Assembly (NCBI GenBank): GCA_963674525.2
Contig: CAXXRV010000016.1
Span: forward strand, 12,648-44,647
Length of the DNA: 32,000 nucleotides
Direction: 5' to 3'
Origin: an uncultured Psychromonas sp.
GTDB lineage: Bacteria > Pseudomonadota > Gammaproteobacteria > Enterobacterales > Psychromonadaceae
Position 1 is the first letter of the stretch, and every line of letters begins with the position of its first letter. The translations under genes and the position numbers were made by a program. Of this stretch, positions 1-10,281 are shown piece by piece. Under the pieces are notes generated by a model that did not search any database, had not been told where the DNA came from, and saw nothing but the letters and a program-made list of their open reading frames with translations.

Positions 1-64
1 CATTCTTGCGCTCGGGCATGAGCGTCTAGCAGTAGGAATCCCCCCACTAAAATCTTTGATTTAG
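1..64 (+). CDS. tnpB: 3' terminal fragment of tnpB (copy 1), 5'-truncated by the window edge; codons start at nt 2 and read ILALGHERLAVGIPPLKSLI*
   Basis: In-frame match to the C-terminus of the complete TnpB at 8352-9440 (ILALGHERLAVGIPH*). The extra C at 41-46 shifts the stop from the position equivalent to 9438-9440 to 62-64. Confidence 0.75.
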   Translation, partial: ILALGHERLAVGIPPLKSLI

Positions 65-81
65 TGGAGGGAGGATGTCAA
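1..81 (+). mobile_element. Right end (RE) of a second copy of the tnpB-only IS200/IS605-family element; the body of this copy lies left of the window
   Basis: nt 1-81 align with 9392-9471 (2 substitutions and one 1-nt C-tract indel). Identity stops abruptly after GGATGTCAA in both copies. Subterminal hairpin CCACTAAA (44-51) / TTTAGTGG (60-67). Confidence 0.85.
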
Positions 82-7572: not shown

Positions 7573-7610
7573 CGTGTTATTCGTCTCGTTAATAAAAGAG
7601 TTGATTGGTT

Positions 7611-8216
7611 ATGGTGCAATGGTTACTACTATCGATATTAATAGGCGCAGCGGGATCACTGACAGCCTGCAGCAAGAGCCTTGATAAGGCCCCTGAAAAG
7701 CCCGTTTCTTTTTCGGTGAAGCTTGAGCCTGCTGCTTTTGTCGAAAATTCTGGGGCGCCTGTCGAGCTGACGGCGGCAACAGAGACACAATTATCATCTG
7801 GATTTGCACAGAGCATGCTGTCGGCCGTGAATAAGGCACGCGCGCAGGCACGTCAGTGTGGCGGCAGAAGCATGCCGGCCGTTGCCAAGCTAACCTGGAA
7901 TAAGCAACTGCAACGCGCTGCTTATATCCATTCAAGCGATATGGCGAAATATGAGTTTTTCAGCCATACCGGCTTGCAGGGCAAAGAGGTTAGCCACCGA
8001 GTTCAGGAGCAGGGCTATCGTTGGCGTGCGGTGGGAGAAAATATCAGCGCCGGGGCTGTGGATGTGCAGGCTGTTATGGCGGGATGGTTAGCCAGCCCCG
8101 GCCACTGCGCCAATATTATGAGTGCGGATTTTACAGAAATGGCCGCTGCTGTGGTCACCAATAAGGCAACCTATTATGAGCACTATTGGACGCAGGTGTT
8201 TGCAGCCCCTTTTTAA
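7611..8216 (+). CDS. CAP/SCP/PR1-like (YkwD-type) domain lipoprotein
   Basis: Lipobox LTAC after a hydrophobic stretch. The C-terminal domain carries WNKQL...AA..HS.DM, GENI and GW..SPGHCANIM, which is typical of CAP domains. The ATG at 7611 is preferred over the TTG at 7605. Confidence 0.7.
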   Translation: MVQWLLLSILIGAAGSLTACSKSLDKAPEKPVSFSVKLEPAAFVENSGAPVELTAATETQLSSGFAQSMLSAVNKARAQARQCGGRSMPAVAKLTWNKQLQRAAYIHSSDMAKYEFFSHTGLQGKEVSHRVQEQGYRWRAVGENISAGAVDVQAVMAGWLASPGHCANIMSADFTEMAAAVVTNKATYYEHYWTQVFAAPF

Positions 8217-8217
8217 C

Positions 8218-9471
8218 GAACCTTGCGGAATTCTCTACCCATAACTTGTTTGGGTGGAGATGGATAGCAAACCAGCCGTTAGGTTGGTCTATCTTAGTTG
8301 GATACACTATCATTTTTGCCTGTGTTTACATCCAGACAAATCAGGTCTACTATGATCATTATGAAAAGCAAAGTACACACAAAAACGCTAAAAACAAGGA
8401 TCCGTGATAAACATCTAAGCACCCTAAACAAATGGGCTTACGGTGTGAATCAGGTGTGGAATTTTTGCAATGAAACGGCGATGAAGGCACTGAGCAATGT
8501 CAGTGAATTTGGCCCGGTAAAACCCGCTTTCCTGTCTGGTTATGATCTCCAAAAACACACTAAAGGCATGAATAAAACGCTTGGCCTGAATTCTGCGACC
8601 GTGCAGATGGTTGGGCATGAATATGCCACCCGTCGCAAACAATTCAAGAAATACAGATTGAATTGGCGTAAGTCAGGAGGGGTTAGACGTTCACTGGGTT
8701 GGATCCCGGTTCGTAAAGACTGTATTAGCTTCAAAAATGGTCAGGTTTATCATAACCGCCACTATTTTAGCGTTTGGGATAGTTACGGATTATCTCAATA
8801 CACGTTCAAATCAGGATCATTCAATGAGGATTCAAGAGGCCGGTGGTACTTCAATGTTGTGGTTGAGGTGGAAGCAGAGCAGGGTACAGGCAAAGCCAGT
8901 GTGGGTATTGATTTGGGTTGTAAAGAAACAGCCACCGACAGTAACGGCTACAAACTAAAAGGCCGTGAATACCGCGAGCTAGAAAAAAGTTTAGGCATCG
9001 CACAACGGGCAAAGAACAAAAAGCGCGCAAAAGCGATCCATGCAAAGATAAAAAACCGCAGAGTAGATGCTTTGCATAAATACAGCCGCAAACTTGTCAA
9101 TGAAAATGCGGCGATATTCATTGGCAACGTAAGCAGTCAAAAACTGGTCAAGACTAAAATGGCTAAGTCCGTTTTAGATGCGGGCTGGTCTACATTAAAA
9201 ACACTATTGGAATACAAAAGCGCTCACGCTGGTATTGTTTTTGAAGAAATCAATGAATCGTACACCACCCAAACTTGCTCGTGTTGTGGCTCTCGCCAAA
9301 ACAGTCCGAAAGGTAGAGCAGGACTTGGAATAAGAGAATGGACCTGTGAGTGTGGTGTCACTCACGACCGCGATGTGAACGCGGCCAAAAACATTCTTGC
9401 GCTCGGGCATGAGCGTCTGGCGGTAGGAATCCCCCACTAAAATCTTTGATTTAGTGGAGGGAGGATGTCAA
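8218..9471 (+). mobile_element. Non-autonomous IS200/IS605-family element (IS1341-like, tnpB only). The right boundary is exact; the left boundary is approximate.
   Basis: The right boundary is defined by loss of identity with copy 1 after TCAA (9471). The left-end region has hairpin ACCCA (8237-8241) / TGGGT (8251-8255) followed by GGAGATGGATAGCAA. This resembles the right end: hairpin, then GGAGGGAGGATGTCAA. No tnpA (Y1 transposase) ORF is adjacent. Confidence 0.75.
8352..9440 (+). CDS. tnpB: TnpB-family RNA-guided endonuclease-like protein (IS605 OrfB / IS1341 type)
   Basis: RuvC-I GIDLG (D at 8910-8912), zinc finger CSCCG...CECG, RuvC-III HDRDVNAAKNI (9363-9395), and the DAGW...LEYK block. 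The start is uncertain (ATG at 8352 or 8361); the ORF-track start at 8298 would lie in the left end. Confidence 0.85.
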   Translation: MIIMKSKVHTKTLKTRIRDKHLSTLNKWAYGVNQVWNFCNETAMKALSNVSEFGPVKPAFLSGYDLQKHTKGMNKTLGLNSATVQMVGHEYATRRKQFKKYRLNWRKSGGVRRSLGWIPVRKDCISFKNGQVYHNRHYFSVWDSYGLSQYTFKSGSFNEDSRGRWYFNVVVEVEAEQGTGKASVGIDLGCKETATDSNGYKLKGREYRELEKSLGIAQRAKNKKRAKAIHAKIKNRRVDALHKYSRKLVNENAAIFIGNVSSQKLVKTKMAKSVLDAGWSTLKTLLEYKSAHAGIVFEEINESYTTQTCSCCGSRQNSPKGRAGLGIREWTCECGVTHDRDVNAAKNILALGHERLAVGIPH

Positions 9472-9491
9472 CTCAGTGCACTGTTAGTAAA
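9330..9491 (+). ncRNA. Putative omegaRNA (reRNA). The scaffold overlaps the tnpB 3' end and the right end. The predicted guide is about 9472-9491 (ctcagtgcactgttagtaaa).
   Basis: By analogy with characterised TnpB systems, the scaffold ends at the right-end boundary and the guide is the flanking DNA. The hairpin 9434-9441/9450-9457 can extend by CCC/GGG across an A bulge. The 5' limit is a guess and there is no transcript evidence. Confidence 0.4.
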
Positions 9492-9504
9492 AAGGAAAGA
9501 TTCT

Positions 9505-10281
9505 ATGGAAAGCTACCAAGCGTTGTTGAGCACCTTAGCCTTGACGATGGGCGCCTCATGGGCCAGCGGCATCAATCTATATGCCGCGCTGCTGGTGTTA
9601 GGTTTAGGCGGGGCGAGCGGTAATATAGATCTACCTTCCGGGCTTGAGGTGCTTGAAAATCCGCTAGTGATAGGTGCAGCAGGGCTGATGTATTTTGTTG
9701 AGTTTTTTGTCGATAAAACGCCGGGGGTAGACAGCGGCTGGGATGCAATTTCTACCTTTATTCGCTTGCCGGCCGGTGCCATGTTAGCGGCAGGCGCTGT
9801 CGGCGAGGTGACGCCTGCACTCGAGATTGCCGCCGCTATTATGGGCGGCGGGTTAGCCGCCACCAGTCATGCGACTAAAGCAGGAACGCGGCTACTGATT
9901 AATACCTCTCCTGAGCCGCTAACTAACTGGACGGCATCGATCAGCGAAGATCTGCTGGTGCTTGCTGGACTTTGGACTGCGCTTAATCATCCGCTGGTTT
10001 TTATTGTTCTGCTGCTGATATTTATTATACTGGCGATTTTGCTTTTGCCTAAGTTATGGCGCTTTATTAAATTGCTGTTTCGTAAAATTGCGCAATTTAT
10101 AGGTTTGCTTGAAAAAGATAAAGTCATAGCAGCTGGCGTCGAGGGAGGTGTAACGCATGAGCAATTGCAGGCTTTACGCAGGCAAGGCGTGTTAAGTGAG
10201 AAGGAGTTTAATGCCGCTAAACAGAGGTTGCAGCAAAATCACCAGGCACAGGGTAAAGAGAATGGCAGTTCCAAGGATTAA
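9505..10281 (+). CDS. DUF4126-like membrane protein with a C-terminal SHOCT-like motif
   Basis: GINLYAALLVLGL...VEFFVDKTPGVDSGWD...RLPAGA matches the DUF4126 pattern as I recall it. The C-terminus GVLSEKEFNAAKQRL resembles SHOCT. The ATG at 9505 has AAAGGAAAG upstream. Confidence 0.6.
   Translation: MESYQALLSTLALTMGASWASGINLYAALLVLGLGGASGNIDLPSGLEVLENPLVIGAAGLMYFVEFFVDKTPGVDSGWDAISTFIRLPAGAMLAAGAVGEVTPALEIAAAIMGGGLAATSHATKAGTRLLINTSPEPLTNWTASISEDLLVLAGLWTALNHPLVFIVLLLIFIILAILLLPKLWRFIKLLFRKIAQFIGLLEKDKVIAAGVEGGVTHEQLQALRRQGVLSEKEFNAAKQRLQQNHQAQGKENGSSKD

Follow-up and report, generated by a model that had tools for sequence, protein, structure and literature searches.

Glycine at the canonical RuvC-II position and a candidate relocated glutamate in a transposon-encoded TnpB of an uncultured Psychromonas

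Results

A tnpB gene within an IS200/IS605-family element

The DNA analysed here, the window, is a stretch of 32,000 nucleotides from the genome of an uncultured Psychromonas sp. (contig CAXXRV010000016.1, positions 12,648 to 44,647). It carries an IS200/IS605-family transposable element that lacks the transposase gene tnpA and encodes a TnpB protein. Where canonical TnpB enzymes have the catalytic RuvC-II Glu, this protein has Gly, and an invariant Glu is found further downstream. The element, its gene and the active-site residues are as follows.

8218..9471, + strand: IS200/IS605-family element without tnpA, 1254 bp; boundaries from BLAST comparison between copies and from an empty site in a relative
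8361..9440, + strand: tnpB coding sequence; 359 residues from the ATG at 8361, 362 from the ATG at 8352
8910..8912, + strand: D184, RuvC-I Asp, in the motif GIDLG (D-L-G, not D-P-G), aligned to GVDVG of ISDra2 TnpB
9123..9125, + strand: G255, at the canonical RuvC-II Glu column in three alignments and at the end of predicted strand 249-256
9255..9257, + strand: E299, candidate alternative RuvC-II Glu, 44 residues past G255 and six before the first CxxC; invariant
9276..9353, + strand: zinc-finger cysteines C306, C309, C329 and C331, all four invariant in the 69-representative and orthologue sets described below
9372..9374, + strand: D338, RuvC-III Asp (HDRDVNAAKN), aligned to D361 of ISDra2 TnpB by HMMER

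The open reading frame (8298-9440, + strand) has two likely starts, the ATG codons at 8352 and 8361. The former is used in the database clusters P0002-P0004, which are 96-98% identical to the window TnpB. Residues are numbered here from the ATG at 8361 (P0001, 359 residues), and 3 is to be added for the other start. The protein scored 206 bits against the NCBIfam profile guided_TnpB, NF040570 (cutoff 100), and matched the Pfam families PF07282 (84.6 bits, cutoff 26.3) and PF01385 (35.9 bits, cutoff 30.5), the domain names being OrfB_IS605 and Cas12f1-like_TNB (zinc-ribbon). ISDra2 TnpB was its top sequence match among PDB structures (HMMER, 1.1e-20). An AlphaFold2 model was built with an alignment of 36 homologues and had a predicted local distance difference test score (pLDDT) of 76 and a predicted template modelling score (pTM) of 0.52. 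Foldseek matched this model to ISFba1 TnpB (8iaz), ISDra2 TnpB (8h1j), AsCas12f and the mimivirus Fanzor2 (9b0l), with E values of 2e-16 to 4e-13 and TM scores of ~0.62-0.64 for the top matches. The curated profile, the TnpB/Cas12f-like fold, the IS200/IS605 element with its Y1 transposase partner and the predicted structured right-end RNA all place the protein among the TnpBs.

Gly255 occupies the canonical RuvC-II column

Conservation was followed in four sets: 36 homologues of >=66% identity (A1); 69 representatives with identities down to 34% (A2); 79 orthologous sequences translated from the genomes of other species; and 31 intact paralogues within the same genome. Nucleotides 9099-9134 encode NENAAIFIGNVS (residues 247-258). 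HMMER alignment with ISDra2 TnpB paired LVNENAAIFIGNVSSQKL with LVREYEIIGTEHLKPDNM. A profile of the 69-sequence family placed ivvGdv against IGTEHL of ISDra2 and IAVEDL of 9yyg, and MAFFT alignment with the canonical TnpB family of the same genome placed AIFIGNV against IIVLEDL. I-F-I-G-N-V was thus paired with I-G-T-E-H-L, A-V-E-D-L and V-L-E-D-L, and the three alignments agree that the canonical Glu column falls on Gly255.

The original prediction, made by eye from the sequence, had proposed that the canonical RuvC-II Glu is missing, and had named a Glu on that column as the finding that would speak against it. No Glu of the window TnpB stood there in the HMMER, family-profile or MAFFT alignments, which bears out the proposal. 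The residues and coordinates it gave for the segment at 9099-9134, the RuvC-I Asp (8910-8912) and the HDRD motif (9363-9374) were also correct. Its register was two residues off: it had put Val257 (9129-9131) on the catalytic Glu column, which is held by Gly255 (9123-9125) instead. Column 255 is Gly in all of A1, in >=90% of A2 and in 78/79 orthologues, and the next position, 256, is Asn in 52/79 orthologues.

The other catalytic motifs are present. D184 is invariant in A1 and A2 and is found in 78/79 orthologues, and the RuvC-I motif reads D184-L185-G186, with Leu in 79/79 alignment sequences (in this count, 78 orthologues and the window protein). H335-D336-R337-D338 lies at 9363-9374, and R337 and D338 are invariant whereas D336 varies. 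The second zinc knuckle (9345-9353) reads C-E-C; this CxC form, also seen in some relatives, has a one-residue deletion compared to the CxxC of most.

E299 is the best candidate for the third carboxylate

E299 lies in the context INESYTTQTC and is followed by six residues and the first zinc-finger cysteines (E299-SYTTQT-C306-SC-C309). It is invariant in the 36 homologues of A1, the 69 representatives of A2, the 79 orthologues and 31/31 intact copies in the genome, and the alignments show Pro at this column in canonical enzymes. Yoon et al. (2023, NAR) defined Ealt as an alternative Glu that precedes the zinc-finger motif by six residues (PMC10711439), and the arrangement E299, six residues and C306xxC309 fits this definition. 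The offset of +44 from G255 to E299 agrees with those reported for relocated Glu residues, 'approximately 45 residues' (PMC10530073) and '50 residues' in Fanzor2 (PMC11832414). In the topology of the AlphaFold2 model, G255 closes strand 249-256 and E299 directly follows the neighbouring strand, 293-298. HMMER also matched residues 292-345 to residues 460-508 of the Fanzor2 chain 9b0l. If the first and last eight columns of this match are ungapped, E299 would correspond to Glu467 and D338 to Asp501, which is consistent with the assignment as a check on position and not as a residue-level alignment. In the Fanzor2 structure obtained by cryo-electron microscopy, Glu467, Asp501 and Asp324 form a triad with Mg2+, with Glu467 coordinating the ion (PMC11832414). 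We infer from these positions that E299 is the third catalytic carboxylate and would contact the metal site.

It is very unlikely that the site is rearranged around a carboxylate other than E299, with E248, E295/E296 or position 256 in the catalytic role and E299 serving to maintain structure or to position the zinc finger. The AlphaFold2 topology gives strands and not carboxylate geometry, and the E467A mutant of ApmFanzor, in which cleavage was abolished, was also poorly expressed, hinting at a structural role (PMC10530073). Against this, the competing residues vary. E248 is Glu in only 14/79 orthologues and Arg in 39/79; E295 is Glu in 27/79 and Lys in 36/79; E296 is Glu in 51/79 and Val in 22/79; and position 256 is the frequent Asn noted above. 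The intact copies in the genome include the variants E248K and E295A, each in one paralogue, and the Fanzor2 equivalent of E299, Glu467, is a metal ligand. E248 was rejected as the relocated Glu on the further ground that ISDra2 TnpB has a non-catalytic Glu there too (LVRE).

One reading of the original prediction was a rearranged catalytic site, with E248 (in VNENAA) or E295/E296 (in VFEEINE) as the relocated Glu. The kind of rearrangement holds, but the residues named do not: all of them vary in orthologues, and E299, the last Glu of VFEEINE, takes their place.

Three TnpB families are found in the genome. A second Ealt family of four copies is ~60% identical to the window TnpB and reads VGDVSS ... 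VNESYSTQTC; two of the four copies have their own Y1 TnpA (C22:28483-30010 and C4:52579-54136). The third family (~416 residues, ~26% identity) occurs in ~10 places, for example C26:144746-145993, C24:497190-497855 and C22:16522-17769. It has IIVLEDLKIKNM at RuvC-II (LEDL), VDPKYTSQTC before the zinc finger and an NADH-type RuvC-III motif. This is the reverse pattern, the G255 column holding Glu and the E299 column Pro, and the family serves as an in-genome canonical control.

The element is present in many copies under selection

The ends and target of the element, and a second copy at the start of the window, are as follows.

8212..8217, + strand: TTTAAC, host-derived target and predicted target-adjacent motif (TAM), directly 5' of the left end; present in 45/47 left flanks
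8233..8259, + strand: left-end subterminal hairpin, CTCCACCCA / TGGGTGGAG in other copies; 47 left ends compared
9463..9471, + strand: GGATGTCAA, unpaired right-end terminus, the element ending after TCAA; nearly invariant across 78 other-species loci and 52 right ends in the genome
1..81, + strand: 3' tail belonging to a further, neighbouring copy of this element (genome C16:11467-12728)

Similarity between copies begins after TTTAAC and ends after GGATGTCAA, as seen at ~47 left and 52 right ends across the genome. An empty site was found in a relative of the same genus (G011, locus L036), where the upstream gene ends ...CCCCTTTTTAAC and is followed directly by the leader of the downstream gene. 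Two other relatives (G002 and G003) have the same gene end and keep TTTTAAC without the element, so TTTAAC is host sequence. These comparisons point to TTTAAC as the insertion target. A role as the TAM is predicted and follows the usual logic of IS200/IS605 elements. The upstream gene (7605-8216) has its stop codon at 8214-8216, within TTTAAC, and is left intact by the insertion.

The genome holds 43 full-length coding sequences of the family, of which 31 are intact and 12 are broken or altered in length. In all of the 31 intact copies the four catalytic columns read D, G, E and D, and these copies comprise 30 distinct protein variants. Among 465 pairs of intact copies, the mean nonsynonymous divergence (dN) was 0.018 and the mean synonymous divergence (dS) 0.182, giving a dN/dS of 0.10, in line with the original prediction that the protein is under selection. 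That prediction also held that the copy tails differ only synonymously, which is not strictly correct. The neighbouring tail (window 1-81) differs from this copy by two synonymous changes and one extra C (six C at 40-45 against five at 9431-9435), which shifts the last two codons and turns GIPH-stop into GIPPLKSLI-stop.

Four autonomous copies of ~1617-1620 bp carry a divergent Y1 TnpA of 132 residues between the left end and tnpB (PF01797, 3.7e-42), located at C10:93299-94917, C13:67173-68785, C24:417837-419453 and C26:303845-305464. The TnpA is 100% identical across the four, and ~30 nt in the tnpA-less form replace ~385 nt of the autonomous form. An adjacent Y1 tnpA in the same position is found at 23/80 orthologous loci in other species.

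Some copies contain a ~1030-bp insert, which was considered as a possible tnpA and rejected; it encodes an unrelated IS1595/ISXO2-type transposase (315 residues, PF12762, 1.5e-14). Four element copies share this gene at one position of their left-end region, C5:179131-180164 (L032:244-1191, minus strand), C24:166430-167463, C26:320792-321824 and C5:12052-13084, and it reflects either a nested insertion that was later copied or an insertion hotspot.

Covarying stems at the right end point to a guide RNA

The right end has three features that we assign to the guide RNA (omegaRNA) or its template.

9399..9426, + strand: two stems in the 3' coding sequence (9399-9405/9410-9416 and 9417-9419/9424-9426), assigned to the omegaRNA scaffold
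9430..9462, + strand: terminal hairpin spanning the stop codon, with compensatory changes in 5/6 pairs; visible in 78 loci
9472..9491, + strand: flank expected to template the guide; copy similarity ends at 9471, and the length is a prediction

The right end follows the stop codon after only 31 nt, and the omegaRNA scaffold would therefore extend into the coding sequence. Among the copies, diversity at third codon positions falls from ~0.1-0.2 to 0.007-0.08 over 9163-9440. Across 53 non-redundant loci from other species, the three 3' stems were paired in 98.6% of cells compared to 41-55% when the partners were slid. Changes on both sides were seen in 11/16 pairs, with 113 double-change cells against 0-23 in slid and a mean of 22 in shuffled controls. 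For the two inner stems, 100% of cells were paired and 6/10 pairs changed on both sides. These stems lie in coding sequence, and their covariation is best explained by an RNA. The terminal hairpin, whose loop usually holds the stop codon among the other-species loci, probably has two roles, one within the omegaRNA and one as the hairpin by which TnpA recognises the right end. The expected position of the guide follows the biology of ISDra2 and TvTnpB (PMC10530073).

Discussion

The gene at 8361-9440 most probably encodes an active TnpB-family RNA-guided DNA endonuclease with a known rearranged RuvC site. We propose that its catalytic set comprises D184 on strand beta-1, E299 in the loop just past strand beta-5 and D338, and that Gly255 ends strand beta-4 at the position held by Glu in canonical TnpB/Cas12 enzymes. 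The tnpA-less element (8218-9471) would insert 3' of TTTAAC and would be mobilised in trans by the Y1 transposase from the four sister copies. Transcription of the omegaRNA would begin within the last ~100-250 nt of tnpB and run past the right end into the flank, and the RNA would direct TnpB to the empty donor site, flanked by TTTAAC, that excision leaves behind. Cleavage at this site would trigger recombinational re-copying of the element.

Several observations weigh against this interpretation or parts of it. The AlphaFold2 model is only moderately confident around residues 258-273 and 300-325. The literal Ealt regular expression, D{P}G-x(120,160)-E-x6-CxxC-x(12,18)-CxxC-x(4,8)-D, does not match the window TnpB: the spacing from G186 to E299 is 112 (120-160 in the expression), the gap from C309 to C329 is 19 (12-18), and C329-E-C331 is CxC. 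The core E-x6-CxxC and the final Cys-x6-D338 do match, so that the misfit is limited to spacer lengths and the CxC second knuckle. Covariation in the terminal hairpin could stem from TnpA binding to the DNA hairpin and not from a function of the RNA, and an Rfam search of 8000-9700 with E values up to 1 gave no described omegaRNA family. Finally, T replaces C at 8236 in this copy alone among the 47 left ends, producing a T.G mismatch in the left-end hairpin; recognition by TnpA is perhaps weakened, and this copy may be a poor transposer even with an active TnpB.

Loss of the canonical Glu could instead have inactivated the RuvC domain and left an RNA-guided DNA binder that resembles TldR or Cas12k/Cas12m, which was the second reading of the original prediction. 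The Gly placed at the canonical Glu column by all three alignments is what such a protein would show, and inactivated, exapted TnpBs exist (PMC10691335). We consider this highly improbable. An invariant Glu stands at the published alternative position together with conserved D184 and D338, and DNA cleavage is known for enzymes arranged in this way (PMC10530073). The ~47 left ends in varied contexts and the tnpA partners are not what a lone, immobile gene bound up with a host operon would show. A multi-copy, tnpA-linked element whose copies are selected at a dN/dS of 0.10 bears the marks of a mobile system, and does not fit an exapted, immobile, nuclease-dead derivative. Least probable of all is that the window copy is a decaying, non-functional relic whose residue pattern has no functional meaning at this locus: 12 of the 43 full-length sequences are damaged and the left-end mismatch is unique to this copy, but its reading frame is unbroken and keeps the four catalytic-column residues, it is 6-16 residues apart from the other intact copies, and the copies are under the purifying dN/dS given above.

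If the gene encodes an active rearranged TnpB, as we favour, the window protein should not be filed as a dead nuclease, and D184/E299/D338 should be annotated as its catalytic set. The family is very common, with >500 matching loci in species-representative genomes and ~8000 clusters in the protein database, so the same annotation correction applies widely. Most of its hosts are Gammaproteobacteria; some are Betaproteobacteria, and at least one is an alphaproteobacterium (Henriciella). Members were seen in Shewanella, Halomonas, Marinobacter, Pseudomonas, Endozoicomonas, Thiopseudomonas, Azotobacter, Providencia, Comamonadaceae and Henriciella, and one strain of Denitrificimonas has at least 11 loci.

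Papers of 2023-2024 already described the rearrangement, explained it structurally and showed related enzymes to be active, and the locus opens no new question. It does offer a natural test set, with 30 intact variants, a 6-nt target, a guide boundary exact to the nucleotide and a canonical TnpB control in the same genome. It is a rather doubtful suggestion that the relocated Glu changes the chemistry in this compact (359-362 residues), Y1-linked bacterial clade that combines D-L-G with Ealt, for example by abolishing collateral cleavage of single-stranded DNA. If it did, the single-stranded transposition intermediates of the element would be protected, which would help explain its expansion to ~47 copies.

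Comparison with known systems

By its residue pattern, the window TnpB belongs to the published class with a rearranged RuvC-II motif, described as RIIr (Altae-Tran 2023), TnpB2 (Jiang 2023) and Ealt (Yoon 2023). Within RIIr, the clade RIIr-5, 'the largest of these groups', has a Glu that 'is replaced with glycine', with a shift from beta-4 to beta-5 (Altae-Tran et al. 2023, PNAS, PMC10691335). The window TnpB resembles this clade in having Gly for the canonical Glu and a putative compensating Glu in the loop past the next strand. Both are also found in mobile elements, those of RIIr-5 being associated with Y1 or serine TnpA. In contrast, its RuvC-III motif is DRDxN, which is listed there for the 'typical' clade. 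The likeness to RIIr-5 rather than another RIIr branch is suggested by residue pattern and model topology, not by placement in a tree.

TnpB2, represented by TvTnpB from Thermoplasma volcanium (Jiang et al. 2023, Sci Adv, PMC10530073), has its rearranged Glu ~45 residues downstream of the canonical position, comparable to the +44 of the candidate E299. An IS605 Y1 TnpA adjoins its gene, as at some loci of the window family, and its guide RNA, like the one predicted here, maps to the right end. TvTnpB cleaves DNA in a TAM-dependent manner without collateral activity (PMC10530073). It is archaeal with the TAM NTGAC, whereas the window protein is gammaproteobacterial with the target TTTAAC, and the two are likened by description and not by direct sequence comparison.

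Ealt TnpBs, pro-Fanzors and Fanzor2 (PMC10711439; ApmFz2, 9b0l, PMC11832414) share with the window TnpB a Glu six residues upstream of the first CxxC and a D...E...D triad, predicted in the case of the window TnpB, and the Fanzor2 9b0l was matched by both Foldseek and HMMER. In pro-Fanzors and Fanzors, RuvC-I carries D-P-G, the transposase partner is an IS607 serine TnpA and the host is a cyanobacterium or a eukaryote. A pro-Fanzor or Fanzor identity was ruled out by the D-L-G of RuvC-I and the Y1 HUH transposase partner (PF01797) of the window TnpB, which is found in a gammaproteobacterium.

ISDra2 TnpB (8exa, 8h1j) shares the overall fold, the domain order, the zinc finger, HDRD and an omegaRNA, predicted for the window element, that overlaps the 3' end of tnpB. 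It differs in that Glu fills the G255 column and Pro the E299 column, and in its TAM, TTGAT, compared to Gly255, E299 and the target TTTAAC in the window element.

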